IMG/VR virus record: IMGVR_UViG_3300035698_018280
Location: 1 to 64,000 of that record
Direction: 5' to 3' (one strand)
Length of the DNA stretch: 64,000 nt
Source: a virus
Below are positions 7,562 to 57,867 of the stretch, in pieces (position 1 is the stretch's first letter; every line of letters starts with the position of its first letter). The position numbers and the translations under genes were made by a program. The notes below the pieces were generated by a model, which made no database searches, was not told where the DNA came from, and saw only the letters and a program-made list of their open reading frames with translations.

Positions 7562-8308
7562 TTAATTAGTCATTAACTTTTTTACTTTTTCTAAATCGCT
7601 AGCCGTATCTACGCTTATACTATCATATTGAGCATATCTCATATGAATATCAATATCGTTTTCTAAAAATCTTAGAAGACCAATCCCTTCAATAGACTCT
7701 AAGTACGACTCTCCTAATGCTTTATATTGTCTTAGCGCTGCGCCAGAAAATGCATAGACTCCTATTTGTTTATCAATATTCAAATCGTCATTTGATCTTC
7801 TTGTATTTTGCCCAGAATAAGGAATACTGTATCTGGAAAAATAAACAGCCTTCAGGCTCTTAGAAACAACCACCTTTACAACGTTGGCATCGAATAGCTC
7901 TTCCTCAATAACTGTCTTTGTATAGAAGTTGACTATCGATGGAGAATAATCAGCATCTAGTATATTGTGGTCAAACATAGGTTCGTCGCCTTGAATAACG
8001 ATATACCTATCGCCTCCTTCCCCCTGGCTCTCTAGCTTCTCAGCAACCTCTGCAGCACGGTCCAAACAATCGCTATGATCTTCTCTCGTCATGATACATG
8101 GGATACTATACTTTTTGCATACGTCTTCAATCCTGGTATCATCTGTAGCGACATATAAAGATGACCATTTATCCCATTTTATAGCTGATTGATAAACATG
8201 CCATATCATGGGTTTACCCAATAAATCTGCTATTGGCTTTCCAGGAAATCTAGAAGATTTGTATCTTGCTGGTATTATTCCTATATGCTTCATTTCCAAA
8301 TTCCCCAT
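7562..8308 (-). CDS. kdsB: CMP-Kdo synthetase-like cytidylyltransferase
   Basis: IIPARYKSSRFPGKP, YVATDD, IQGDEP, YFSR, IGVYAF, LE..E...LRFLEN and SVDT motifs. Confidence 0.85.
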   Translation of the reverse strand: MGNLEMKHIGIIPARYKSSRFPGKPIADLLGKPMIWHVYQSAIKWDKWSSLYVATDDTRIEDVCKKYSIPCIMTREDHSDCLDRAAEVAEKLESQGEGGDRYIVIQGDEPMFDHNILDADYSPSIVNFYTKTVIEEELFDANVVKVVVSKSLKAVYFSRYSIPYSGQNTRRSNDDLNIDKQIGVYAFSGAALRQYKALGESYLESIEGIGLLRFLENDIDIHMRYAQYDSISVDTASDLEKVKKLMTN

Positions 8309-8311
8309 AAT

Positions 8312-9220
8312 CTACTTACTATTGTCCAATACTATTTTTGTTCCTAACTTAGAAGCTGCTATTGCCTCTTCAAAATTGCTGAGATCGAATATCTTATAGA
8401 AATCTGGTTCCCATACACCAAGTATTGCAATCGCTTCCTCAAAGTCCTCTTCATCGCTACCTAAAGACGTAATGATATTGATCTCATTGGAAACACATTT
8501 ATTGATATCGACAAAATCGTACTCTAAACCATACGCCAGTATGTTGCACCCTCTATTACCCAATACATTAGAAAGAGCCTTTGGATTTCCTGAACATTCC
8601 GCTACAACATTATATGAATTCCATTCGAATTGATCTGCATCATGAATCTTCGGATCATAAACATCATATTCAAAATTCATAGAGTTTAAAACTGCACAAA
8701 ACATTCTCCCTATGGAGCCATAACCTAAAACCAATACTTTATCATTCGAGCATGGGTCAAGGCGGCGACAGCCTCTTACCGCTATAGCCAATGGCTCAAC
8801 CAAAGCGTACTTAGGAGAAGCTTCAGGAACAGGTATGAGAGCATTTTCTGGCATAATGATCTTAGTAGCATGCCCTCCGTTCCTATTGACAATTCCTGTC
8901 TCTATCCTATTCTCGCAATATATATGACTTCGCTTGCAGCCATTGCATTTACCGCAGCCAATAACACATAGTCCCACCACTGCATCTCCATTACTCATAC
9001 CGACCCATTCATGCCCAGTTATTATTGGGTAAGATGCCAAACCATTCTTATAGTAGAGCAAAGATCCATCTATGATACTATAATCTGTACGGCAAATAGC
9101 AGAGTAAACAACATCAACAACAACTTCTCCAGCAGAAGCATCGCCTATATCTACATCTCTGTATCCATATTTGCCTGGTTCATCAACGACTATTGCTGTG
9201 GTAATCAATTTTGTCTCCAT
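8312..9220 (-). CDS. Zinc-dependent (MDR family) alcohol/sugar dehydrogenase
   Basis: ICRTD, GHEWVG, CGKCNGCKRSHIYC, VEPLA and LGYGSIG motifs. Confidence 0.85.
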   Translation of the reverse strand: METKLITTAIVVDEPGKYGYRDVDIGDASAGEVVVDVVYSAICRTDYSIIDGSLLYYKNGLASYPIITGHEWVGMSNGDAVVGLCVIGCGKCNGCKRSHIYCENRIETGIVNRNGGHATKIIMPENALIPVPEASPKYALVEPLAIAVRGCRRLDPCSNDKVLVLGYGSIGRMFCAVLNSMNFEYDVYDPKIHDADQFEWNSYNVVAECSGNPKALSNVLGNRGCNILAYGLEYDFVDINKCVSNEINIITSLGSDEEDFEEAIAILGVWEPDFYKIFDLSNFEEAIAASKLGTKIVLDNSK

Positions 9221-9227
9221 TGACTAT

Positions 9228-9824
9228 TTAGTCATAAAGTTTTCTCAAAATGGTAAGTCCATGACAAACAGGTATAGTAGAGTATTCCCATTTATCAAGA
9301 TCAAGCTCCTTTATAGCCCTATATGGGCCTCCATTGCCGAACTGATGACTAGCTGGCCTCATCTTCGTATCGTAATCAGGATGGCTATTCAGCATAAGGT
9401 CATGAAGCAGTATGATGCTAGACTTGTTTACATGAGGCTCTAAAAGCTCGATCTCTCTGACAACATGCTCATAAGAGTGCCAATCATCAACTAAGACAAC
9501 ATCGAATATAACATCTCCTAGATTATCAAGATACTTATGAGCATCGCTCTTGCAAAATGTCCAATGCTTTTTCAGATGATTCTCTGGAACAAAATCGGTC
9601 TGTTCAAGATCTACTGAAGTTAAATGTCCGTCAGTATGAACCATGGCGCTTAGAAACGCCTGAGTAGAGCATCCGTCTCTGACTCCAAGCTCCAATACGT
9701 TTTTAGCGTTCAGAGCCACTGACAGTGCAAACGTAGTGATCATATGAGAATTGAAATCTGTATGACCATTGGTTTTTCTGTCTGGCTGCAAAGCTCTCTT
9801 TACAAATAATTTCAAATCATCCAT
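9228..9824 (-). CDS. SAM-dependent methyltransferase (Methyltransf_24)
   Basis: VLELGVRDGCST, SVDL, VDDWHSYEHV and LLHD motifs. Start set at 9824 (GAGG RBS). Confidence 0.8.
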   Translation of the reverse strand: MDDLKLFVKRALQPDRKTNGHTDFNSHMITTFALSVALNAKNVLELGVRDGCSTQAFLSAMVHTDGHLTSVDLEQTDFVPENHLKKHWTFCKSDAHKYLDNLGDVIFDVVLVDDWHSYEHVVREIELLEPHVNKSSIILLHDLMLNSHPDYDTKMRPASHQFGNGGPYRAIKELDLDKWEYSTIPVCHGLTILRKLYD

Positions 9825-10674
9825 TAATAAACCTCGGGTTTGTCCAACTCTGTATTCCATCTTGGAATTCCATTCTTCCAAAAGGAAGATCGTAAGAAGT
9901 ATTATGTCTGAAACAGAAGTTGCTTATCCAGCCCATTTTTGAAAATGTCTTGCGCAATGAATCATCTATTTCATTAGAGTGAGTCCCTATGTGGACTCTT
10001 TTGACTTTCTTATTCAATCGTTTTCTAGCGGCATGAAAAACATCTATCTCTGCGCCCTGTATATCGCAATCTATAAGATCAACTGTTTCAAACTTGTTGA
10101 TCAAATCAGAAAGAGAATAAGATTGTCTGCATTTTTTTCTTTCGCTTTTCTTCTTTGGTTTTTCTGCTGTTTTTGTTTTCCGACTAGCCCAGCCATAAAC
10201 TATCTCATGATCTATATCAAAATCAAATTTATTAACTTCATTGTCATCGAAATTTTGTTTTATGTATGGAAGTCTGTGGCGGGATGATTCTACGCTAACC
10301 AATTTACAAGGCAACTTATTAAGATGGTTATTGGCTATAGCAGAGAATATTTCCCATCGACCAGAATGAGCGCCAAGTTTAATCATGTTATATGAATCTG
10401 TAGCATCTCTAACAGATGAAAGAATATCAATCCATTCATAATAATCTTCTGATAAACAGTAATGAGGGTTCATACTGGTCATCAGAGTAGCGTTCCAATG
10501 ATAATTTTTCTCTATTTCTCCAGATCCTAATTTGGAAAAATACTCCTTGCGAAATTTGCCGCCAAGGAAGTTGTAGAAGAACACATCGTCTTCCTCTATC
10601 CATTTGTCCTTTGGAAACAAATCGAATACAGGATCTATGCTGGTGAATAACTTGTTATTATTAAACATACGCAT
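9817..10674 (-). CDS. FkbM-like methyltransferase
   Basis: KLGAHSGRW, VSVE and VDLIDCDIQGAE...VHIGTH motifs. Confidence 0.7.
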   Translation of the reverse strand: MRMFNNNKLFTSIDPVFDLFPKDKWIEEDDVFFYNFLGGKFRKEYFSKLGSGEIEKNYHWNATLMTSMNPHYCLSEDYYEWIDILSSVRDATDSYNMIKLGAHSGRWEIFSAIANNHLNKLPCKLVSVESSRHRLPYIKQNFDDNEVNKFDFDIDHEIVYGWASRKTKTAEKPKKKSERKKCRQSYSLSDLINKFETVDLIDCDIQGAEIDVFHAARKRLNKKVKRVHIGTHSNEIDDSLRKTFSKMGWISNFCFRHNTSYDLPFGRMEFQDGIQSWTNPRFING

Positions 10675-42278: not shown

Positions 42279-43292
42279 CTAGGAGAATTCTCCATAGAAC
42301 TGCTGACGTTTATCATCTAGTGACGGGTCTTTCCATATTCCCGCTGAGTGACATATCGACTGAAACTCACAATATCTGCACTCGTAGTTATCCTTGGTCT
42401 TTGGTCTTGGCGGCGGTAAAAGATTATCATCGCACATTTGTCCCATAGTTATAGCTTGCTCCCTAATCTTGTCCCACAATTTATCATCTCGATAAACAGG
42501 AAGAAGTTTAGTAGAACTATCATCCTTATTTTCAAAATACAAAATACCATATTCAAGATCAAGTAAATGAATATAGATTGTAACCTGTACCTTGTATCCG
42601 AATGGAGGGCCATTCTCTAACTTGCTTTTATAACCAAACGAATTGATACTTTTCATATCAACCAGAATAGGTTTCTTCGGTAGATCCTCATCTTTGAAAA
42701 GGACTCTTACGCCATTGCCTTCTCTGTACTGATCGCCGCCATTGAATCCGGAGAAATCAAGAATCTGGTCAACATGTCCCCGAAAGTTCATCTCTTTATC
42801 TTGAACAGTAATTTCATGGTAAACAAATTCTTTATGGCCGCAGTTACATTTATCTGGCTTGAAGCAACCAAGCTTATTTTCGTAGCCATAACGACGAGGT
42901 TTAGTCGGATGATCTTTAGGGGGACTGCCTCCCTGAGGAATGCTAAAGATACTGGTGCCGTCATCAAGAGTGTTATGACAGCGGACATTGCCGCATTCCC
43001 AGATACCTCGGAGTACGCCAATGTCTTCCCAATATTTTGCCCATCGATCATGCATCGAATGACCAGTATCAAAAATACGAATAGTCTTACCTTCAAACTT
43101 CTGAGGTATCGCTTTGATTTTTCCGTTATCAACATATCTTTGATATTGCATTCGTCGCAAGCAATTACCAAAAGCTGACGGGTGATAAACCTCATAACCT
43201 CTCGGGGGACCGTTGATACCTTTCCATCTAAGATAGGTATTCAACAAATTTGAGATAGACTTTATTTCAGGCGGTTGTTTGTGGAATTGCAT
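42279..43292 (-). CDS. Solo Cas4-like PD-(D/E)XK exonuclease with Fe-S cysteines
   Basis: HPSAFGNC, DTGHSMH, GHVD, VDMKS, QVTIY and ECRYCEFQSIC motifs. Confidence 0.85.
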   Translation of the reverse strand: MQFHKQPPEIKSISNLLNTYLRWKGINGPPRGYEVYHPSAFGNCLRRMQYQRYVDNGKIKAIPQKFEGKTIRIFDTGHSMHDRWAKYWEDIGVLRGIWECGNVRCHNTLDDGTSIFSIPQGGSPPKDHPTKPRRYGYENKLGCFKPDKCNCGHKEFVYHEITVQDKEMNFRGHVDQILDFSGFNGGDQYREGNGVRVLFKDEDLPKKPILVDMKSINSFGYKSKLENGPPFGYKVQVTIYIHLLDLEYGILYFENKDDSSTKLLPVYRDDKLWDKIREQAITMGQMCDDNLLPPPRPKTKDNYECRYCEFQSICHSAGIWKDPSLDDKRQQFYGEFS

Positions 43293-44049
43293 ATTCTAAT
43301 AACCTTCTGTCAATGTCCTCATAGGAGAACTGGTTTCTTTCTAGTTTGGCTTGCCGAAGTACGTTTCGCATTCCTTTTGCGCCGTGCTTCGATAAGAATC
43401 CGTCTGGATCTTCTTTCTTCTGATCGTTTCTGGGGAGTATAACAGGTATAACCGTCATACCAAATGTCTCCGCCATTTCCTGATTTTTGACCATAGTCAT
43501 ACTACGCGATAAAGTTTTAAGTCCAGATTCATCATAATCGAACAACAAAAATATTTCGCTGCAATATCGTCTTAGTATGCATGCGTGTTCTAGCGTAAAT
43601 GCGCTGCCCAAAACTCCTACGGTCATATCGAAACCGAAATCATGCATGCGAGCAGTATCAATTTGTCCTTCAACAATAATTGCCTTGCCGCTTTTACGAA
43701 TGGCTTCTTTAGCTATATTCAATCCATACATGTAGAATCGCTTATTGAATTCTTCATGCAAATGAGGAAATTGTTTTTGATCTGTTGTTCTAAATTTTCT
43801 ACTGGTAAGAACAACCAAATCATCATAAGGGTCAAACAAGGGCATGATGATCCTTTCAGACCACGCATGCCGAACTCTACTGGGAACATACCCAAAACGG
43901 AACTGCTTGAGTATCTTTTCCGATAAATGTCTCTTCTCGCGCAAGTATGACAGCGCTTCTACTACGTCTGCAGAATCATCTTTCCAGAGAGTTTTCTGGC
44001 CGCGATCACAAAAGTATTCGCGCTCATGTTCAGGAAGCTTTACGCTCAT
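43267..44049 (-). CDS. dnaG: DnaG primase catalytic core (Toprim) without a zinc-binding domain
   Basis: ALSYLREKR, FGY, RIIMPL, YMYGL, IIVEGQID, LGSAFT.EH and LLFDYDESG motifs; no N-terminal CHC2. Confidence 0.85.
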   Translation of the reverse strand: MSVKLPEHEREYFCDRGQKTLWKDDSADVVEALSYLREKRHLSEKILKQFRFGYVPSRVRHAWSERIIMPLFDPYDDLVVLTSRKFRTTDQKQFPHLHEEFNKRFYMYGLNIAKEAIRKSGKAIIVEGQIDTARMHDFGFDMTVGVLGSAFTLEHACILRRYCSEIFLLFDYDESGLKTLSRSMTMVKNQEMAETFGMTVIPVILPRNDQKKEDPDGFLSKHGAKGMRNVLRQAKLERNQFSYEDIDRRLLEYAIPQTTA

Positions 44050-45374: not shown

Positions 45375-46058
45375 TTAGAAGTTGAGATCGTCGTCATCGT
45401 CGTTAGACGAGCTTGATGCGCCCGCCGCAACAGTGGCCGACTGATCTCCGCTAGAGCCTCTGGAAAGGCCCAGCTTCTCTTCAATCTCATTCTGAGCAGT
45501 TGGTTCGAATAGTTTATTCAGATCGAATGCGCCATGCTCCTTGAGATACGCCTTCTCTGTATCAGAGAAAGGAGTCTGAAGCATAGGAATAACTTCGTAA
45601 CGAGTATTTCTCTTATCAGTTCCCTTGCAAGTAACATTGATGGTAAAATCAGCGCCCTTGCCCGAACCAGGATTGACATCGTTTGCCTTACCCCAGTCTC
45701 GAATAAATCGAGCTATGGTAGGAGCGACCTCAACGATCTTGAGGCGAGCCATTCCATTGTCATCAACATCGTTGCGATCGAGTACGTTGAAAGCGTAACG
45801 AATACGCTGATCATACTCTGGATCGCCATCTGCATTCTTGTGATTACGAAGAACGACGCAATCTCCGCCAGCATCGGTAATAGCAACTTGATACTTGCCA
45901 TCATCGCCCTGAACAAAATAACGTCTAACCTCTGCAGGTCGTCCTACTGGACGAAGCTTATAACTTTGATTTGCTTCAATTTTGAGGAATTTGCCGCCGC
46001 CGCCGCTTGATTCGCCTGCTGGACGTGGATCTACCTCGCCCCATTCTACTGTACCCAT
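45375..46058 (-). CDS. Phage single-stranded DNA-binding protein (T4 gp32-like)
   Basis: FLKI...KLRPVG, RYAFNVLDR, G.DFTI...TRYEV and acidic tail DDDDDLNF; next to recA with a strong AGGAG RBS. Confidence 0.7.
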   Translation of the reverse strand: MGTVEWGEVDPRPAGESSGGGGKFLKIEANQSYKLRPVGRPAEVRRYFVQGDDGKYQVAITDAGGDCVVLRNHKNADGDPEYDQRIRYAFNVLDRNDVDDNGMARLKIVEVAPTIARFIRDWGKANDVNPGSGKGADFTINVTCKGTDKRNTRYEVIPMLQTPFSDTEKAYLKEHGAFDLNKLFEPTAQNEIEEKLGLSRGSSGDQSATVAAGASSSSNDDDDDLNF

Positions 46059-46173: not shown

Positions 46174-47448
46174 TCAATCAACATCGTCCCATGAAAAGGA
46201 CTCTTTTGACTTCGTTTCAGCTACTACATTCTTCGGCGTTTCGAGGATTATTTCCTTCCCTTCCACGCCATTTTCTAGACGATCAAACCCGCTTAAATTA
46301 GATTTGGTTTTTGCTGGTTTTTCGATAGGTTTTTCCTCATTCCAAGGAGGACTTTTATCATTATTGTTATGGGAATTTTCTTCAGATTGAAAACTACTAA
46401 TAAGAGATTTAGTAGGCATAGACATAGTAACAAGACGACTAATATTCTCGTACTTAGTATCTAGATTTTTTAGTATATCTTGAGTAACATCATTCAATCC
46501 CTCAAGGTCTCCCATGTAGAGTTCAAGGTCATACATATGCTCGAACTTTACGCCTGCCTGTCTAGCTGCTGGCTTATCATAAAAACAACGAGCTAGTTGG
46601 CCTTCAAGCATCGGAACAAATCGCTTAAAGTGATGATATTGAAAGAGAAAAGTTGACCTGATTTCAGTTACACGATCTCGCCATTGGCGAATTTCAGACA
46701 GACCTCGGCTGATACGCTCATAATCGTGCATATCAATATCTCTACAGTCAATTTTGATCTGTATAAGTTCTCGCTTATATGCTCGAACAGGAACCTTGCC
46801 TCCGTCTAAAAGTTTCGGAAGGATCTCTGATTTCGCCTTGTAGAATGAAGCAAACTTATCTGAAGGACAATTAAGGAACCAACCATCTGGTTCTTCAATT
46901 ACAGGTTCTATTTCTTCTTGTTTTTGTTGCGAAGGTACTGTAGAGTCGCTATGCTCGGGCCGTAACTCGCTGCTATCCACGCTGCCTTCTCCCGACTCGG
47001 AATCGTCACTGATGACTGTTTCCTGAGGTGGCTGTCTGTCCACTTCATTTTCTTTCGATTTTCTACTGGTCGTAGTTGGAATCGACTCCGAGAGGATTGT
47101 TTCAGGGTCGCCTTTGGCTGATTCATCTTTACCTCCACTATCTGGTTCAGGACTATCAGTATTTTCGGGCTCAGATGAAGAAGATTCCTTCGTATCAATA
47201 ATTTCGGCTTTTGGGACGCCCCCAAATTCAACGTTAGCGCCTTCACCTTCATCAATTTGATTGCTAATCTTACCTGCCTTATCATCAAAAGATGACGCTA
47301 TGTTGTCAGAAGAAGCATCTGAATAAGCCTCTTCTTGAGATTCATCATCTGATTCTTTCGTCTCAATATTCCCGCCATCACGGGTAACACTAAAAATATC
47401 ATCCATTGTATCAACTATATCAAATTCATCAGCCATCTTGCTGCCCAC
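46174..47448 (-). CDS. Hypothetical protein: acidic low-complexity N-half plus helical C-half (possible recombination mediator)
   Basis: Roughly 190 aa rich in D/E/S/P, followed by an amphipathic helical region; directly upstream of SSB and recA. Confidence 0.55.
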   Translation of the reverse strand: MGSKMADEFDIVDTMDDIFSVTRDGGNIETKESDDESQEEAYSDASSDNIASSFDDKAGKISNQIDEGEGANVEFGGVPKAEIIDTKESSSSEPENTDSPEPDSGGKDESAKGDPETILSESIPTTTSRKSKENEVDRQPPQETVISDDSESGEGSVDSSELRPEHSDSTVPSQQKQEEIEPVIEEPDGWFLNCPSDKFASFYKAKSEILPKLLDGGKVPVRAYKRELIQIKIDCRDIDMHDYERISRGLSEIRQWRDRVTEIRSTFLFQYHHFKRFVPMLEGQLARCFYDKPAARQAGVKFEHMYDLELYMGDLEGLNDVTQDILKNLDTKYENISRLVTMSMPTKSLISSFQSEENSHNNNDKSPPWNEEKPIEKPAKTKSNLSGFDRLENGVEGKEIILETPKNVVAETKSKESFSWDDVD

Positions 47449-47456
47449 TCCTTATT

Positions 47457-47741
47457 CTATAGAGAGTCGAAATCATCCTTCTTGAATTTGGTAGTTGGGC
47501 CATCATTGCGAACCGCATTTTGACTGTCCAAATTCAACTCTTGTAAAGTTTTCAATTCAAATCTCTGGTAGTCTTCTAATACCAATTTACCAACATTTTC
47601 CGATTTCTTCATAAGCTCCTCAACAGAGCCCCATTCTACTTCTTGAGAGATCTCTGCAAAAATATCGCAGGTCTCATATTTTGCAGTATTCAGCTTGCGT
47701 GTTACGCCCTTCTTGATCATCGATTTTCTAATATCGCCCAT
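47457..47741 (-). CDS. Hypothetical phage protein
   Basis: 94-aa ORF with an AGGAG RBS. Confidence 0.65.
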   Translation of the reverse strand: MGDIRKSMIKKGVTRKLNTAKYETCDIFAEISQEVEWGSVEELMKKSENVGKLVLEDYQRFELKTLQELNLDSQNAVRNDGPTTKFKKDDFDSL

Positions 47742-47756
47742 CGTTTACTCCTTCTT

Positions 47757-49799
47757 TTATTCATCGCCAAACATATCGTCTGACTCCAATCCTTTTCGAC
47801 GAGATTTCCTTCTGTCTTCCCGTAGTTCACCAAACTCTTTTACAACATCTTCAGACTTACGTTTTTTCGTTCTACCAGTCTTCATATCTTTCTCTCTAAA
47901 GAAGCCAGCAATCGCCAGGCATTCTGCACTTTTTGCATCAACAAACTTTGGATCAGTATTGAAAGCAAAATCTCTCATATCCGAATACGGCTGCTTGGCC
48001 TCAATCTCTGTAGCCGCTCGGTGGCTCATACCCTTACAACGAAGCGAAGGTCTGATCTGAGACTTATGAACACCGTTTGACGGATCTTTGCGGACAACAA
48101 TTTCGTAGTCATAACTACACTTGTTGATACTACGAGGAAGAACGTCCATATTCATCTTGCCGCAATCTTTTTCAAACTGCACAATCTTTTCATACTTATC
48201 AGCTTTTTTACTTCTCAATAAAACATTCATGTATGATGTCATAAACTCTTCAGGATAATGAGTTTTCAGATAAGCAGTTGTATACGATAAATAAGCATAA
48301 CAAGCGCTATGAGATTTATTAAATCCATAATCAGCAAAGGGAGTAATAAACTTATCCCAATACTGTTGCGCAACTTCTTCAGGAACATTGTTGACTTTAC
48401 AGCCGTCAATAAACTGAATTTGATACTTATTCATGAGTTCCGGTATTTTCTTACCGACTGCTTTGATCATAGCATAACCATCAGTAATAGAAAAACCAGC
48501 AAGAGAATTACAGACTTGCATCAACTGTTCTTGATAACAAAGAACTCCGTATGTAGGTTCTAGATATTTTCTAACATAAGGCTCAATAGACTCATGAAAA
48601 TATCCAACAGGTTCTTCGCCTTTCTTACGAGAAGAATATAATGGAATTGATTTCATAGGCCCTGGACGATACAAAGCTACTCCTACAATGACATCTTCAA
48701 AACGATTGACTCTAAGTTGTCGCATCGTTTGTTGCATACCTGGATTTTCGCATTGGAAAACGCCATTGAGTTTGCCGCTTCGATATAGATTTAGTGTATC
48801 CTTATCGTCAAGAGGCATATTCTCTACATCAATTGTAATTCCATAATTTTCTTTAATAAGTTCTACTGTCCGACGAATAACTGCCAATGTTGATATGGCA
48901 AGAATATCAAATTTGATAAGACCCATAAACTCAAGGTCTTCATATGCATATTGCGTAGCAAGTTCATAATGAGTACCCTTACCTTCTTCGTCTGCAACTT
49001 TCTTTCGGCTTAGCCTCAGAGGAGCAATAGACTGAAGAGGTACGCTAGAAATAACAATTCCGGCAGCATGAACGCTAAAGTTAGATAGTAATCCCTGAAT
49101 ATTGGGCGAATGCTCAAGAAGCTCAGGATATTTATCCACATATCTTTTAAAGTCATCGCAATATTTTGCCCCATCTGCAACAGTCCTGATAACGACATCA
49201 TTACCCTCCTCATCGGTGGCCCTGATGTTTGCCCCGACCTGTTTTGGAAGAGATTTTGCTATCTCGTCCCCTCTATCCTGCGTTTCCTTGCGCCAACGTT
49301 CCCTGTTCTCATTCCTAACAGTCTTGCTCTCGTGAAGAGCCATAGTAGGTGAAAATACTTTATCAGGATCCAGGGCTCTAAACCCTTGGCGAATATAAGA
49401 CTTAAGCTTCAACGACTGATAAGTACCGATATTACCAACATGGTCTCTACCATACTTGTCAATAATGTAAGTATAAATTTCATCGCGAAACTCATCATCA
49501 AAATCAGAATCAATATCAGGAAAGCCCTTACGAGCAAAACAACGACGAATAGGAAGAAATTCTTCGTCCTCTGGTCTTTTCTCAGTTATACCCAATAGAT
49601 AAGCTGTATGAGAATTGATCTTATTAGTCTTACCGATAAGACTCTTCTCTTTAGCGCTCTTCCACATATTATAAAACTTAAGGAGAATAGGCTCTCCATC
49701 AAGATTATCGGTTTGAGCCATAAAGTCCAATTCTTCTCGAACTTTATCAGTGGCTTTACTTCCAATAGTTTCAAGAATCTCTTGTTTGATCTTGTTCAT
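47757..49799 (-). CDS. dnaE: DNA polymerase III alpha, C-terminal part (catalytic palm, fingers, HhH; no PHP, no OB)
   Basis: GFPDIDSDF, KYG, HAAGIVIS, GLIKFDIL, GVFQCE, ALYRPGPM, YGVLCYQEQ, YGFNKSHS and YLKTHYP motifs; ends in DDMFGDE. Confidence 0.93.
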   Translation of the reverse strand: MNKIKQEILETIGSKATDKVREELDFMAQTDNLDGEPILLKFYNMWKSAKEKSLIGKTNKINSHTAYLLGITEKRPEDEEFLPIRRCFARKGFPDIDSDFDDEFRDEIYTYIIDKYGRDHVGNIGTYQSLKLKSYIRQGFRALDPDKVFSPTMALHESKTVRNENRERWRKETQDRGDEIAKSLPKQVGANIRATDEEGNDVVIRTVADGAKYCDDFKRYVDKYPELLEHSPNIQGLLSNFSVHAAGIVISSVPLQSIAPLRLSRKKVADEEGKGTHYELATQYAYEDLEFMGLIKFDILAISTLAVIRRTVELIKENYGITIDVENMPLDDKDTLNLYRSGKLNGVFQCENPGMQQTMRQLRVNRFEDVIVGVALYRPGPMKSIPLYSSRKKGEEPVGYFHESIEPYVRKYLEPTYGVLCYQEQLMQVCNSLAGFSITDGYAMIKAVGKKIPELMNKYQIQFIDGCKVNNVPEEVAQQYWDKFITPFADYGFNKSHSACYAYLSYTTAYLKTHYPEEFMTSYMNVLLRSKKADKYEKIVQFEKDCGKMNMDVLPRSINKCSYDYEIVVRKDPSNGVHKSQIRPSLRCKGMSHRAATEIEAKQPYSDMRDFAFNTDPKFVDAKSAECLAIAGFFREKDMKTGRTKKRKSEDVVKEFGELREDRRKSRRKGLESDDMFGDE

Positions 49800-50137
49800 T
49801 ATATACCTGCGCTAAAATGGGCTGTTACGCCCAGGCTAGAATATTTCTTCACTATTTTTAGGTTCAGCCTATTTTGCAATAGCTCTCCTTGTCGTTCTAT
49901 CTCTTTCATTTCGGCCCAATACCCTTCGCTATTATCATCATCCACCAACATCGTTCCAGGTTTAGCCTGCCAATAGCAATATACACTAATTTCTGTATGA
50001 TATGTCCTACTTGAAAAATGCAAGCCCCACGAGTTGATATCTATTTCAAAACGAGGTTCATCAACTTCCTGGCTAACTTCATCCGATGTTTGACGAACCA
50101 TTTTTAAGATATTTTGAATTACGCTAGAAGACAACAT
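49799..50137 (-). CDS. Hypothetical protein between the two dnaE halves
   Basis: 112-aa ORF starting 3 nt after the dnaE-N stop, with a TAATG overlap to dnaE-C. Confidence 0.6.
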   Translation of the reverse strand: MLSSSVIQNILKMVRQTSDEVSQEVDEPRFEIDINSWGLHFSSRTYHTEISVYCYWQAKPGTMLVDDDNSEGYWAEMKEIERQGELLQNRLNLKIVKKYSSLGVTAHFSAGI

Positions 50138-50140
50138 GAG

Positions 50141-51535
50141 TTAATACCTATCTACTCCGCCCATATCGTCTTCAAACTCTCGATCCAGAGCGGCGGTTTC
50201 AATAAACAACTCTTCTGCAGATTTGGCTTCATCTAAACCAAAATCGCTCTCTTGCAGGAATCTCTTGTCATCGAAGCCCAAGAATCTTTCCCAAAGAAGT
50301 CCATACTCCAATGGATCTGGCCCATATGCAATACCAAGGCAACGTAAAAGCACGCTGCCGTATCCTGAACCCCGGCCGCATCCGGTCAAGATGTTTCGCC
50401 TTCGAGCTTCCATCATGTAGTCTCGAACAATAAGTAGATACGTTGCAAAGTCATATTTATTATTATCCCATGCAACTTTGATATCATCCATTTCGAGTTT
50501 CAATCGAGCTATATGTTCAGGACTCTGCGCCCATCCTAATTTCTGAAGACCGTCGTTTGCCAACTGCCCCATGTAATCATGAGGAGATTTAAAACTTTTA
50601 GGTATATCGAATCTAGGCAGTCTCATACCGCTTGTCATATTTGTAAGTATATCGGTAGTGTCAACCTTGTCGGCAACAAGCATGGTATTCGTCAGAAGCT
50701 CAGGATGCGTTCCAAATGTCTTAGACATTTCAGCAGCCGACTTTAGATAGAACTCACTGTAAGGAAACTTGATGCGGCTAGGATCGCTGAAGCAACGAGA
50801 AGTTGACATTGCCATTAGAAGCTCATGAGATTTGCCCTGGCATTTTTCGCAATAGTGACAATCATTAGTAGCATGAACGCATACATCCATGTCTTTACCA
50901 AGCTTGAGAATATCCGGGATAATCATGCCTTCAGCATCTATACCATGATACATAGCCTCAAGATGAAAATCTTTATCGAATATGTCTTTAAAAAGGGCAA
51001 CGGCCTTCTTGGCCTGATCGTAACGGTCATGCAACAAGTTAGCATTGATAACGCTACTTAGACAAGCAGAAGTGCAAATAAGCCCTTCGCTATATTTACC
51101 AAGAAGATCAAAATCTATACGAGGATCAAAGAAATAACCTTCGGTCCAGCTATGCTCAGAAAGACGACAAAGGTTCTGGTATCCTGTCCAGTTTTTAGCA
51201 ATCAAAACAATATGTCTATTGCCCTTTCGCTTGTCTGGTTGTTCTTGTACTGAATGAGCGTGCCTGTCTTTGGACAAATAAAACTCGCAGCCTACGATGG
51301 GCTTGCATGTTGGAATCTCGTTTCCATGCTCATCTTTAGCAGGCTTTAGGCATTCCTGCATAAACTTGATAGCACCAGCCATGTTTCCATGATCAGTCAT
51401 GGCAAGGGCCTTGAATCCTTTTTTGCGAGCAGCAAGAGGAAACTGTCCTATCTTATTTAGCCCATCAAAAGATGAGTATTCAGTATGGTTATGAAGGTGA
51501 CAAAAATCGGCGTTAGTGATACGAAGTTTTCCCAT
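50141..51535 (-). CDS. dnaE: DNA polymerase III alpha, N-terminal part (PHP domain plus start of palm)
   Basis: HLHNHTEYSSFDG, AMTDHGN, KPIVGCEFY, ATNDCHY, YLKS, LPRF, GCGRGSGYGS and DPLEYGLLWERFL motifs. Confidence 0.93.
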   Translation of the reverse strand: MGKLRITNADFCHLHNHTEYSSFDGLNKIGQFPLAARKKGFKALAMTDHGNMAGAIKFMQECLKPAKDEHGNEIPTCKPIVGCEFYLSKDRHAHSVQEQPDKRKGNRHIVLIAKNWTGYQNLCRLSEHSWTEGYFFDPRIDFDLLGKYSEGLICTSACLSSVINANLLHDRYDQAKKAVALFKDIFDKDFHLEAMYHGIDAEGMIIPDILKLGKDMDVCVHATNDCHYCEKCQGKSHELLMAMSTSRCFSDPSRIKFPYSEFYLKSAAEMSKTFGTHPELLTNTMLVADKVDTTDILTNMTSGMRLPRFDIPKSFKSPHDYMGQLANDGLQKLGWAQSPEHIARLKLEMDDIKVAWDNNKYDFATYLLIVRDYMMEARRRNILTGCGRGSGYGSVLLRCLGIAYGPDPLEYGLLWERFLGFDDKRFLQESDFGLDEAKSAEELFIETAALDREFEDDMGGVDRY

Positions 51536-51581
51536 AACTCCCTATCGTCTGCAAATAATCATGTGTAGATATGTTCCACCG

Positions 51582-51941
51582 TTAAGTCGAACGTTTCTTG
51601 CCATGAGGCTTGATTTTATTAGCATTCTTATTTAAAGAAGAACGTTTTTCCATATATTCCGAATAATGCTTAGTAAATCCAGGAGGCGCATCGCATGTTA
51701 GTCTTTGTTCAAAGGCTTCAGCAAGCGAAATTATTTTATCGTCATCTAAATTATCTGGTATATTTGCCATACCTGAAAAAGGTCCAGACTTAGCTGCTTC
51801 TCTCATTCGCAACAGTTCGGCTTCCAATCTAGTTTTACGATCTTCTTCAGACTCAACTACAGGATTATTCTTTGCATCTTGTAGTTTTTTCTCAAACTCT
51901 TCTTGTAATTTACGAATTTCTTCTGAACCTGGGCGGTGCAT
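51582..51941 (-). CDS. Hypothetical protein
   Basis: 119-aa ORF with a TAATG overlap. Confidence 0.6.
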   Translation of the reverse strand: MHRPGSEEIRKLQEEFEKKLQDAKNNPVVESEEDRKTRLEAELLRMREAAKSGPFSGMANIPDNLDDDKIISLAEAFEQRLTCDAPPGFTKHYSEYMEKRSSLNKNANKIKPHGKKRST

Positions 51942-54910: not shown

Positions 54911-55679
54911 CGAATAAATCCTCTTCTATGTTGCTCATTCTGTTCTCTACAATATCACAAGCATGTCCGCTTATGTCGCACCCCGCAGCATGCCTACGAG
55001 CAAGGATAGATGCTTCTAATGTAGTACCGCTACCCATAAACGGATCAAAAACCCATTGTTCTTCATTACTAAACATCTTGACAACTCTGCTTAGCAGCGC
55101 AAGAGGTTTTTGGGTAGCATAACCAGTCTTCTCTTTTTCATTGCGACACAACGATGGAATATCTGTCCACCAATCTTCAAGAAGCTTACCTTTTTCCTGG
55201 TAATACTCCCATGGAATTTTCTCTTTAGACCAAGCAGTTTTACCGCCTACGTTCATCTTGGCGCTATGATGTATCCGCTGAGGATTATAAGGATAATCTC
55301 CAAAACCATACCATAAAAGGGTGTCATGCTTGCGGGGTAAGTGAGAAACAACAGTAGCAGGACTAGAGTAACACCAAATGATTTCATTCTTGAAGTTTTT
55401 TCTTCCAAAGATACTATCCATCATTACTTTGATATTATGAACAGCCTTATAGTCAACATGCACTATTATATTACTATCAGCTAGAAGAAGAGTTTTGAGA
55501 TTAGTAAAAACTTCAAACATATATGCCATATATTCATGAAAACTATCTCCTACGCCATAATATTTGTCCTCGTCTTTAGAGCTATACGGAGGATCTAGAT
55601 AAATGAGAGAGAATTTTTCTTCTCTTGTGTAATCAATACAACTTATTTTATTTATTTCATGCTGCATTAAATATCCCAA
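54897..55679 (-). CDS. DNA adenine methyltransferase (N6_N4_Mtase, beta class)
   Basis: IYLDPPY, NEIIW, YATQKP and FDPFMGSGTT motifs. Confidence 0.93.
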   Translation of the reverse strand: MGYLMQHEINKISCIDYTREEKFSLIYLDPPYSSKDEDKYYGVGDSFHEYMAYMFEVFTNLKTLLLADSNIIVHVDYKAVHNIKVMMDSIFGRKNFKNEIIWCYSSPATVVSHLPRKHDTLLWYGFGDYPYNPQRIHHSAKMNVGGKTAWSKEKIPWEYYQEKGKLLEDWWTDIPSLCRNEKEKTGYATQKPLALLSRVVKMFSNEEQWVFDPFMGSGTTLEASILARRHAAGCDISGHACDIVENRMSNIEEDLFDDND

Positions 55680-56293
55680 GAGCGAAATGAATCTAACTCT
55701 TTTTTTTCTTTGGCATCCATATACGAATGAAATCTAGGGCCTAGTTTGAAAGGCAAATCCTCAGCCGCCTGTTGTAGCTGGATAACATCTCTGTTCATCA
55801 TTAATCGATCGACCACTTTGAAGAATGAATCACAAACTTCCACCTCTTTAGGATCAAAATCACATTTGCTCATATGATCATGACACAGTTTACTTATATA
55901 AGTTGAGCACATAAGAGAATCGTTGACGATATCTTGACCGCGAGAAATAATAACCTCTCTGGCTCTGGTAACCAGGTGGTCAATTTCGTTATCTACATTG
56001 ATATTCAGCTTCTTACTTAGTCGCTGAATAGTTTCTTTTATTGATATATTCTCATACTCAGAAATGAATTGAATAATGCCTCCGCCTGACTTGCAGCCAA
56101 AACACCAGTAATCCTCATGATCTCCTTTTGAGAATGTGTAGAACGACGGATGGGAATCAGTCCCGTGACCAGGCAGCGGACACAAGTAAACTTTACGATC
56201 CATGGTATTTCGACGCGGACTAACACCTTTCTCAGCAAGATAATCTGAGATGCTATAAGATTTACTAATTAGGTCAATTGCATACGAACTCAT
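55667..56293 (-). CDS. Stand-alone primase zinc-binding (CHC2) domain protein
   Basis: CPLPGH..DSHPSF...YWCFGCKSGG.IIQF...ENIS..E.I..L, followed by a helical tail and no Toprim domain. Confidence 0.85.
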   Translation of the reverse strand: MSSYAIDLISKSYSISDYLAEKGVSPRRNTMDRKVYLCPLPGHGTDSHPSFYTFSKGDHEDYWCFGCKSGGGIIQFISEYENISIKETIQRLSKKLNINVDNEIDHLVTRAREVIISRGQDIVNDSLMCSTYISKLCHDHMSKCDFDPKEVEVCDSFFKVVDRLMMNRDVIQLQQAAEDLPFKLGPRFHSYMDAKEKKELDSFRSWDI

Positions 56294-57867
56294 AAATCGT
56301 CAAAATCTTCAAAGACAACTCGGCCTTTACCGCCTGATTTTTCTTTCTTTGGTTTTTCAACCTTGATTGATGAAACTGGTTTAGAATCGCTACTCTCGCA
56401 TACGTCTAAATCAAGATCATATTCGACCGTAGTACCTTCTGCTTTTTTAATAACAGGATCGTCATTATCATCTCCCCAATCAGCATCGCTAGCTCCAGTA
56501 ATACGACAAATGTCAGGAGTAACATCAAGAATAGCTCTTGTAGAACCAGCAAATTCTTTCTTACCATATCTTGCCTTGATGCAAAATACTTGCAACTGGT
56601 TCCGCTGTTGTGTAGGACTAGGAACTAGAGCGTAGATGTTGTCTGCATCTGCAGAGAAATCATGCGAACCTCGAAGGTCTTCTGAACCGACAGTCTGCTT
56701 GCCTTCTTTCTGGGAGCGGAGTCTCTTGATCGCATCTCTACCAAGCTGAGCAGCGGAAAGAATAGCGAACCCGTGCTTACGTCCAAGCTGTCGAAGATCC
56801 TTACACATATGGCCGACCCATTCGTGGGACTTCTGGTTAGCGTATGATCTCTCTGGCGAAAGGATCGAGATATAGTCAATGACGACGAGCCTTGGCTTGA
56901 AGAAACCAGCCTCCCTCTCGATCCTTGCCTTGATTGCAGAAACAGTCAGGCGTTCCTCTGTATCTTCAATACAGAATCTCATAGGACGATCATCAAACTT
57001 AACCCATTCTCCCCGAATACGATCAATCTCCCCATCGGTCAGTAGCTCGGGCCTGTTGATATGATCATTCGTAACACCAGTTTCGCATGAGATGATCTTG
57101 TTCTGAAGCATTCGCTTTGGCATTTCAAGGCTTACAAACAAAACATCTTTCTGAGATCGAAGATAAACATTCAAAGCGATGTTAATCATCATTGTTGTTT
57201 TGAAGCCGCCGACATCTGCGACCATCAAAGTCAGAGATCCAGGAGGCATGCCAACAACCATCGATTCGTCAAGATCACTTATACCTGTAAGAAGACGTTC
57301 TGAAGGATTGTCTTTCTCTTGAAGAAGCTCTCTTAGAAAGTCTCCGCCTTCTTCGTCTAGGAACGACCAAGTAGATGAAGACTTCGAACCATCAACTCTC
57401 AGCTTGTCTAGCCCCTCGGCAAGGCTACTGACAGCGCCCATATAATTCTTCTTAGCATCTTGCTCAAAAGAATCGAACAGACCATTGAAACTTTCTCTGG
57501 CATGCATCTCCTGAATGCGACCCAAGTATACTTCTATGTCATCGCCAGATGCTCGCTGCATCTGAGAGACATTAGCAAACATGCCGTTTTCTTTAAGAAG
57601 CGCCTGCTTTGGTTTGTCTACGGCCTTTCGGCCCGTCCATTTAGCGTACTCGCCGCTTGCTATGGCCTTCTCGATGAAGTCTCCATAGCCAATGCCGGTC
57701 AGCCTGCCGTTCCTCTGATGAACATTGTAAATGGCATGTAATAGCGGTCGAAACTGAACATCAAAAAAGTCAGGATCAATCTTCTCATCTTGCAATCTAC
57801 TAACAAGCGTTGGCTCATTGAGCAGTAGGTATAAAATCTTCTCTTGACATGCGGATTTTTCTCTCAT
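56290..57867 (-). CDS. dnaB: Replicative DnaB-like helicase
   Basis: TGISDLD, ADVGGFKT, LFVSLEM, VVIDYI, SAAQLGR, DLRGS...DAD and KARYG motifs. Confidence 0.9.
   Translation of the reverse strand: MREKSACQEKILYLLLNEPTLVSRLQDEKIDPDFFDVQFRPLLHAIYNVHQRNGRLTGIGYGDFIEKAIASGEYAKWTGRKAVDKPKQALLKENGMFANVSQMQRASGDDIEVYLGRIQEMHARESFNGLFDSFEQDAKKNYMGAVSSLAEGLDKLRVDGSKSSSTWSFLDEEGGDFLRELLQEKDNPSERLLTGISDLDESMVVGMPPGSLTLMVADVGGFKTTMMINIALNVYLRSQKDVLFVSLEMPKRMLQNKIISCETGVTNDHINRPELLTDGEIDRIRGEWVKFDDRPMRFCIEDTEERLTVSAIKARIEREAGFFKPRLVVIDYISILSPERSYANQKSHEWVGHMCKDLRQLGRKHGFAILSAAQLGRDAIKRLRSQKEGKQTVGSEDLRGSHDFSADADNIYALVPSPTQQRNQLQVFCIKARYGKKEFAGSTRAILDVTPDICRITGASDADWGDDNDDPVIKKAEGTTVEYDLDLDVCESSDSKPVSSIKVEKPKKEKSGGKGRVVFEDFDDL

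Follow-up and report, generated by a model that had tools for sequence, protein, structure and literature searches.

A C-family DNA polymerase probably made as two subunits, with its gene divided between two copies of a palm segment, in uncultured marine huge phages

The window analysed here is a stretch of 64,000 nucleotides (nt), positions 1 to 64,000 of the IMG/VR virus record IMGVR_UViG_3300035698_018280 (163,887 bases; CheckV completeness 33%). Its source is an uncultured marine huge phage of ~500 kb, and relatives are located on marine and other metagenomic contigs of 477-515 kb, in many independent assemblies and with synteny kept. Two genes of the window, separated by one small open reading frame (ORF), divide between them the parts of a replicative C-family polymerase of the DnaE type. 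We consider it likely that these two cotranscribed genes make the two subunits of one enzyme, held together non-covalently and sharing a composite active site. The break lies inside the palm, between two copies of a helical palm segment. The layout is real, old and common to hundreds of metagenomic relatives, and the active site is most likely drawn from both proteins.

The two polymerase genes and the duplicated palm segment

All genes of the window lie on the minus strand, and the polymerase locus consists of three tightly packed ORFs, called exactly as in the first-pass annotation of this DNA. DnaE-N (50141..51535, minus strand; 464 amino acids, aa) carries an acidic tail after a PHP domain and the initial portion of the palm, which includes copy 1. 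An ORF of 112 aa (49799..50137, minus strand) occupies the slot between the polymerase halves; it starts 3 nt past the stop of DnaE-N and its own stop overlaps the start of DnaE-C, the genes being translationally packed. DnaE-C (47757..49799, minus strand; 680 aa) holds copy 2, the catalytic aspartates, the rest of the palm, the thumb, the fingers, a helix-hairpin-helix (HhH) domain and a C-terminal motif like those that bind the sliding clamp. The two halves are 339 nt apart in the window and 11-14 nt apart in some relatives.

DnaE-N matches the Pfam PHP family PF02811 (1.5e-42) and positions 3-99 of PF07733, the Pol III alpha palm model; residues 340-464 scanned alone match positions 24-99 of the latter. 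The NCBIfam DnaE models are matched at positions ~3-394. The protein aligns to Mycobacterium tuberculosis (Mtb) DnaE1 residues 2-427, through GRGS, the next helix and ERFL and on to the place of the catalytic-aspartate motif of DnaE1, at which it reads ..QESDFG... The PHP domain (residues ~13-290; 50666..51499, minus strand) aligns to that of Mtb DnaE1 and is of the proofreading exonuclease type. Its nine metal ligands (H15, H17, D24, H49, E84, H108, C158, D225 and H227) are invariant in 60 relatives, in agreement with the earlier impression that they were intact. Copy 1 of the palm helical module (residues ~347-432; 50240..50497, minus strand), recognized by conservation and by PF07733, ends in the invariant pair D431-F432. 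Within it lies the GS motif G387-R388-G389-S390 (50366..50377, minus strand), the loop that binds the triphosphate of the deoxynucleotide (dNTP). The motif is invariant in the family, aligns with the GRGS of the Mtb and Taq enzymes and is the sole GS motif in the two proteins.

DnaE-C matches PF07733 at positions 13-260 and the NCBIfam DnaE models at positions ~372-887 of 1146. Both ORFs find their places on the polymerase model, a check proposed in the first-pass annotation. The fingers domain (PF17657, 6.9e-47) spans residues 304-471 (48387..48890, minus strand) and the HhH domain, which is of the DNA-binding and beta-binding kind (HHH_6, PF14579, 6e-08), residues 551-636 (47892..48149, minus strand). 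DnaE-C aligns to Taq alpha 411-943, its residues 45-140 falling on Taq alpha 411-508; in this alignment the position of the GS loop is degenerate, the helix resembles the canonical ..AY.LGIT..DP and PDIDSDF is intact. This catalytic motif, P94-D95-I96-D97-S98-D99-F100 (49500..49520, minus strand), is invariant and aligns to the PDIDTDF of Taq. Further on, the block ..GLIKFDIL.. aligns with Taq ..GLLKMDFL.. and includes K296-F297-D298 (48906..48914, minus strand), the conserved palm lysine and third catalytic aspartate, with K296 and D298 taken by us to be the counterparts of E. coli K553 and D555. D95, D97, D99, K296 and D298 are all invariant in relatives. The motifs are therefore complementary, as had been noticed at first reading: GRGS stands in copy 1 only and PDxDxD after copy 2 only.

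Copy 2 of the palm helical module (residues ~15-93 of DnaE-C; 49521..49757, minus strand), which has no GS motif, is recognized by profile comparison, conservation and fold. A family profile of the head of DnaE-C, cut before PDID, was aligned by hhalign to the canonical DnaE segment (probability 92%, P 5e-7, 63 columns), helix for helix and in the right register. Against the single-copy form of the same phage clade the profile gives P 3e-5 over 77 columns; controls with reversed columns give P 0.35 for the canonical segment and 0.006 for the single-copy form. The match to the canonical segment stays (P 4e-7) when the profile is trimmed of its final 11 residues, which single-copy forms share. 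The same picture emerges from tblastn on unsplit phage dnaE genes, where both halves match the same ~90 codons: in MT836213.1 the match of DnaE-N covers 7899-9080 and that of DnaE-C, from residue 1 on, covers 8808-10553. The claim of the first-pass annotation that the first 90 or so residues of DnaE-C re-trace a palm segment already present in DnaE-N, and with it the duplication of that segment, is upheld by this significant alignment.

The annotation had also called the copies degenerate, a description that does not fit. In ~110 relatives per half, the two copies equal the catalytic residues in conservation. The conserved elements of copy 1 are the GS loop, the next helix, ..LLWERFLGFD.. and the invariant D431-F432; conserved positions of copy 2 are E23, N59, N62, S63, A66, G70, T72, P76, R85, R86 and R90. 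Over 60-118 relatives the two copies, like every catalytic and PHP residue, are invariant or almost so. Judged by these alignments, both copies are under strong purifying selection, with neither decaying.

The termini are conserved as well. The tail of DnaE-N (50144..50239, minus strand), compared over the termini of 60 relatives, is a variable acidic linker followed by a conserved ..GGVDRY end. There are two kinds of N half, a short one (~430 aa) that ends directly at the invariant ..DF and a long one that adds the acidic linker and ..GGVDRY. After the acidic run the long type reads ..R-[DE]-V-E-D-D-x-G-G-V-D-R-Y, strongly conserved and missing in short-type N halves and fused forms. The conserved tail is possibly a docking peptide for DnaE-C or another replisome protein, and the acidic tail has no confident placement in the complex model described below. 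DnaE-C ends with a basic patch and G-x-E-S-D-D-M-F (47760..47792, minus strand), an end similar to the clamp-binding motif that lies within E. coli alpha. The family-wide form of this end, a basic patch and then G-V-x-S-x-D-[IML]-F, is kept in all 40 of the relatives inspected (40/40), with G670 and F677 invariant, and we regard it as a putative clamp-binding peptide. DnaE-C gives no match to the OB fold PF01336 and ends at this peptide without a tau-binding domain, just as the first reading had it; phage DnaE proteins commonly lack both of these parts of cellular DnaE1 (Kazlauskas and Venclovas 2011).

Both halves miss the NCBIfam equivalog cut-offs (342.7 versus 1260 and 422.4 versus 1002 bits), an outcome to be expected of halves. 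Among the PHROGs, DnaE-N matches the N-half-like phrog_7513 (‘unknown function’) end to end (6.9e-61) and the C-half-like families are phrog_12219/11165 (DNA polymerase); the best match of both halves is the full-length phrog_405. Half-length DnaE proteins are thus already in the phage catalogues (phrog_7513, phrog_12219/11165), not annotated as a split polymerase.

Relatives, the gap between the halves and the order of events

Each half has hundreds of relatives when clustered at 90% identity, and the halves are conserved at 47-77% identity. Deposited phages are more distant: megablast of the polymerase locus against them gives zero matches, and the relatives found by tblastn are all below 40% identity and all unsplit single-copy genes.

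Three layouts occur in the clade: single-copy unsplit, two-copy unsplit and two-copy split. The single-copy unsplit proteins (~9 clusters, ~991-999 aa) read ERFL, within 17 residues ..KR.FAR.GF, and then PDxDxD. The two-copy unsplit proteins (12 clusters, ~1071-1117 aa) have both copies in one chain, with a linker. In one of these (P0228, 1100 aa) residues 1-437 match DnaE-N at 55% identity, and DnaE-C matches from residue 467 at 48%. The usual synteny holds around one fused form, and a close split relative ends directly after ..SSDFF, the point at which the fused one reads on. Unsplit two-copy chains already show the complementary motif pattern, and therefore the duplication came first and the break fell in the linker between the copies. 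The subfunctionalisation invoked in the first-pass annotation, if placed after the split, is therefore not the source of the pattern: 12 unsplit clusters carry it in a single chain.

A tree built on the N part separates the phage clade from bacterial DnaE as a monophyletic group (support 100), and within this clade the layouts are interspersed, the well-supported branches needing at least four changes for ‘split’, three for ‘fused two-copy’ and two for ‘single-copy’. An approximately unbiased (AU) test rejects the grouping of all two-copy forms together (log-likelihood difference 133, p 1.5e-5), with the tree taken from a quick search and the group named once that tree had been seen. The simplest reading takes a single old duplication, after which the gene was split and fused several times at the linker between the copies and fell back to one copy at least twice. 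The junction of the single-copy forms would then be copy 1 up to ..ERFLGFD.. joined with the ..R.FAR.GF end of copy 2, as expected of recombination between the ends of repeats. This order of events depends on that quick tree of the N part only and on a group chosen after it, and recombination between phages could mimic nested single-copy forms.

No means of rejoining the two products is recognizable at the break. The Pfam scan finds no intein or Hint family in DnaE-N or DnaE-C, the same libraries detecting inteins elsewhere in relatives, and the absence of an intein reported at first reading stands. Rfam over 47500-51800 gives no intron or ribozyme and a single chance match to a long non-coding RNA (lncRNA) family (E 0.39).

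True inteins, with LAGLIDADG or Hom_end endonucleases inside, occur in the N or C half of many relatives (e.g. P0252-P0271, P0158, P0165 and P0190). These inteins (PF14890/PF14528) sit at sites other than the N/C break, some relatives having two, which makes the polymerase genes of the clade a hot spot for inteins.

The gap between the halves differs from relative to relative: it is 11-14 nt, with a Shine-Dalgarno-like (SD-like) spacer in one contig (L004), about 460 nt, or 1.6 kb. The 1.6-kb gap of the closest relative holds a methyltransferase, a 207-aa ORF and a 112-aa ORF, and relatives overall have from 0 to 3 different ORFs there. The 112-aa ORF of the window is a 50% identical ortholog of the closest relative's 112-aa ORF and has the same overlap of stop and start with DnaE-C. 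It matches no family in Pfam, NCBIfam or PHROGs and has no informative Atlas neighbour; three small homologs are its only ones among 1.8 billion representatives. No homing endonuclease is recognizable in the gap of the window, the 112-aa ORF having been scanned against Pfam, NCBIfam and PHROGs, and relatives' gaps hold the methyltransferase, other ORFs or nothing. Going by its homologs, this ORF appears to be lineage-restricted cargo in a variable slot and not a conserved part of the polymerase. A part for it in the polymerase system is not supported, as the content of the slot varies and homologs are few. The gap between the polymerase halves is rather a recurrent landing site for cargo genes.

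Assembly of the halves and rival explanations

The complex of DnaE-N (residues 1-464) and DnaE-C (residues 1-530) was modelled with an alignment of 60 relatives for each, in three runs and with three controls. The ipSAE score is 0.89 in the three runs versus 0.00 for the best of the 3 controls. A mark of 0.89 is reached by 58 of 80 solved complexes and by 2 of 110 mismatched pairs, counts that are rough, own alignments having been used. At least 87% of the contacts agree between runs and the partner pLDDT is at least 86. In the model, N 382-393 (the GS loop) and N 416-434 touch C 82-101, the strand with D95, D97 and D99; N 373/376 lie on C 108-112, the canonical palm packing; and residues of the PHP domain lie on the palm and thumb of DnaE-C. 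Residues 27-74 of copy 2, including the invariant N59, are at the interface of the two proteins. The first-pass annotation had proposed a complex prediction as a check, and the outcome sets the GS loop beside the aspartate strand. What the model shows is that an arrangement of the halves as in a normal DnaE is feasible, which does not of itself imply binding. Within that limit it is informative on the copies, copy 1 being predicted to occupy the canonical place and copy 2 to be an additional module between the subunits.

A model of a fused relative agrees in outline. Its mean pLDDT is 92.4, copy 2 consists of ordered helices (83-92) and only the linker (~430-445) is weak. It superposes on the Taq ternary complex 3E0D with a TM-score of 0.75, and on single-chain DnaE structures with TM-scores of 0.73-0.75. 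Folded alone, copy 2 is a helical module (pLDDT 87).

We propose that the ancestor of the phage clade gained a tandem duplication of the helical palm module that bears the GS loop. Copy 1 would have retained GRGS, and copy 2 would have lost it and stayed attached to the strand with the catalytic aspartates; the gene would later have been cut in the flexible linker between the copies, repeatedly and reversibly. In the split enzyme, DnaE-N would contribute the PHP proofreading domain, the GS loop (R388-G389-S390) and the ERFL arginine, and DnaE-C would contribute D95, D97, K296 and D298, the thumb, the fingers, the HhH domain and the clamp-binding-like peptide. The two would assemble without covalent joining into a heterodimer of DnaE shape with copy 1 in the canonical position. 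Copy 2 would be an extra helical module at the interface of the two subunits, most likely a docking adaptor. Physical assembly and activity of the pair we infer from the conservation of the halves and from the model. A bolder thought is that the GS-less copy 2, far from being a leftover, evolved as a built-in adaptor that allowed a replicase to be cut through its active site; this is possible and, in our judgement, doubtful. Of the interpretation given in the first-pass annotation, the two-subunit enzyme and its composite active site are likely to be right, on conservation and the complex model; subfunctionalisation, if taken to follow the split, is the part to be given up.

If the proteins worked independently, DnaE-N would be a free-standing PHP exonuclease and DnaE-C a self-sufficient polymerase in which copy 2 replaces copy 1; the palm topology of DnaE-C does look complete (copy 2, aspartates, thumb and fingers) and the PHP ligands of DnaE-N are intact. 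However, no family member has a GS loop in copy 2 and the invariant GRGS sits on DnaE-N, where it would be pointless for a stand-alone exonuclease. The model, moreover, sets copy 1 of DnaE-N canonically against C helix 104-116 and the aspartate strand, and single-copy relatives retain sequence of the copy 1 type and not that of copy 2. We hold independence to be improbable. The ‘detachable PHP proofreader’ of the first-pass annotation is likewise judged unlikely, DnaE-N having an invariant GS loop and the model packing PHP and palm on DnaE-C as in single-chain DnaE. That the head of DnaE-C (~100 residues) is an unrelated helical insertion, palm-like by convergence, would leave the split polymerase itself unaffected. 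The tail of DnaE-N and the head of DnaE-C give no significant BLASTP match, and profile against profile they reach E 0.14, in the right register; direct similarity between the copies is not significant, and the duplication is therefore argued by way of the canonical segment. DnaE-C 1-91, DnaE-C 1-60, DnaE-N 395-464 and residues 438-545 of the fused relative, each scanned alone against Pfam and NCBIfam, give no match. Foldseek with copy 2 alone gives no match at E <= 0.001 (E >= 1.7), with C-family polymerases at 6 of the top 14 ranks. The VIA aligner gives copy 2 alone a best Z of 7.3 (root-mean-square deviation 3.8, 87 aligned) to Mtb DnaE1, from residue 318, where the helical palm segment begins, a match that is only middling for a helical module and consistent with duplication without being decisive. 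Convergence has nonetheless to account for a profile match at the level quoted above, with its helices in the correct order, its controls negative and its strength kept after trimming; for tblastn matches in unsplit genes that begin at residue 1 of DnaE-C and run into the canonical segment; and for the fact that all six VIA hits with Z >= 2 are C-family polymerases, with the correct start point. We regard it as quite improbable.

A single-chain enzyme could also be restored once the halves have been transcribed or translated, through a split intein, a group I or II intron, trans-splicing or ribosomal bypass. The frequency of inteins (PF14890/PF14528) at other sites of the clade's DnaE genes lends this some colour, but besides the absence of any intein, intron or ribozyme already described, DnaE-N ends in a conserved non-intein tail, or in the short subtype directly after ..DF. 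The gap consists of 0-3 unrelated protein genes over anything from 11 nt to 1.6 kb, each gene has a separate start (with the SD-like spacer in L004) and both ORFs are intact in the window. Rejoining is accordingly given very little credence. Still less is given to a decaying pseudogene, broken by insertion, in a genome replicated by another polymerase. With 33% of the genome in hand another polymerase is possible, and both halves miss the equivalog cut-offs; decay, however, does not go with halves that remain 47-77% identical across hundreds of clusters, never vary at their catalytic residues and keep their termini, or with genes inside a conserved replication module, and the record gives no match to a PolB family.

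The two-subunit reading itself has to be set against several points, to which the weak direct and structural similarity of the copies belongs. The high score of the complex model may come in part from single-chain DnaE structures, already solved, that the program has memorised. The 164-kb record (33% complete) has no match to the sliding clamp PF00712, which leaves clamp binding a suggestion from the terminal peptide. Finally, the phage is uncultured, and the reading is built on sequences and predicted structures.

Gene neighbourhood, precedents and significance

The polymerase genes belong to a replication module with a DnaB-type helicase, a DnaG zinc-ribbon protein, a separate Toprim primase core, RecA and UvrD, and also a PD-(D/E)XK nuclease, DNA methylases and a gene like those for single-stranded DNA-binding proteins (SSB). 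The DnaG primase is likewise in two genes, ~11.6 kb apart, at 55667-56293 and 43267-44049 (both minus strand). The first encodes a CHC2 zinc-ribbon protein (PF01807, 1.8e-12) and lies directly downstream of, and overlapping, the DnaB-type helicase gene (56290-57867); the second encodes the Toprim catalytic core and adjoins recA, an arrangement found again in L002 and L004. Between the polymerase and recA, a 227-aa protein (45375-46058, minus strand) has no Pfam family, a Gly/Ser-rich region and an acidic ..DDDDDLNF end, and its position is kept in relatives by ORFs of 218-226 aa (L002, L004 and L008). Acidic ends of this kind are typical of the C-terminal tips of SSB, and the protein is probably a divergent SSB. 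Directly after DnaE-C comes a 424-aa protein (46174-47448, minus strand), with a long acidic, Ser/Glu/Asp-rich N-terminal half of low complexity and no family match, whose place is kept in relatives by ORFs of 375-416 aa. Elsewhere in the window, about 38 ORFs of 160-355 aa follow one another on one strand without interruption (4764-35649, minus strand), their starts and stops overlapping. That the run is one expanded paralog family was considered and rejected, all-against-all BLASTP giving only four small groups.

Single-chain DnaE with an active PHP domain (Mtb DnaE1, 5LEW/7PU7; Taq alpha, 2HPI/3E0D) has the same order of domains: PHP, palm with GS loop and three aspartates, thumb, fingers and HhH. 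The phage enzyme differs in being two polypeptides, cut between the GS loop and the aspartates, in having an extra, diverged helical palm module and in lacking the OB fold and the tau-binding domain. Two-gene DnaE is also found in cyanobacteria (Synechocystis and Nostoc), where the products are reportedly joined by a naturally split intein; that break lies further downstream and is repaired by protein trans-splicing, whereas the phage break is inside the palm and has no intein fragments. Among T4-like phages, nrdA of Aeh1 is said to be split by the mobE homing endonuclease, and some Aeromonas phages reportedly have a two-gene gp43. Those genes-in-pieces resemble the present case in that two proteins form an essential replication enzyme by non-covalent assembly and foreign ORFs occupy the gap. 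They differ from it in enzyme family, and the present locus has no recognizable homing endonuclease in its gap and an internal duplication that flanks the break.

Of published systems, the one nearest to this split is the ‘minimal’ Pol III alpha of group 2.2 (T4-like) jumbo phages (Iyer, Anantharaman, Krishnan, Burroughs and Aravind 2021; PMC7824862). There, an N-terminal NTP-binding protein and a C-terminal Mg/template-binding protein are predicted to reconstitute one enzyme, with no inteins; their genes lie far apart, and a family B polymerase accompanies them. That version has no PHP or other domains, and no duplicated module is described for it. Compared by that description, both systems are broken so that the GS loop is on the N protein and the aspartates are on the C protein. 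Unlike the group 2.2 proteins, the enzyme considered here has a full PHP domain on the N protein, adjacent genes in one operon and its break between tandem copies. No match to the family B polymerase PF00136 is found in the 164-kb record (33% complete). Elsewhere, PF07733 marks the group with the largest marine jumbo phages in the work of Weinheimer and Aylward (2022), with nothing further on such a polymerase. The mentions of ‘split’ and ‘polymerase III’ in the PaBG paper concern other subunits and tree statistics, and no prior description of a split DnaE with a duplicated palm segment was found in the literature.

C-family polymerases replicate all bacterial chromosomes and are antibiotic targets, and work on their catalytic core has dealt only with single-chain forms. 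The natural set of split, fused and single-copy enzymes offers comparative material on the assembly of a Pol-beta-like palm, on the attachment of PHP to polymerase and on the tolerance of essential enzymes to fission. In hundreds of huge-phage genomes, pairs of half-length genes listed as ‘DNA polymerase III alpha’ or ‘unknown function’ merit annotation as one two-subunit replicase. If the bolder view of copy 2 as an evolved adaptor is right, the series from single-copy through two-copy fused to two-copy split, with its repeated fission, fusion and collapse, would record the intein-free fission and re-fusion of an essential catalytic core. Separate subunits might then permit assembly to be regulated during infection, for instance by control of polymerase versus exonuclease or by exchange of the N subunit.

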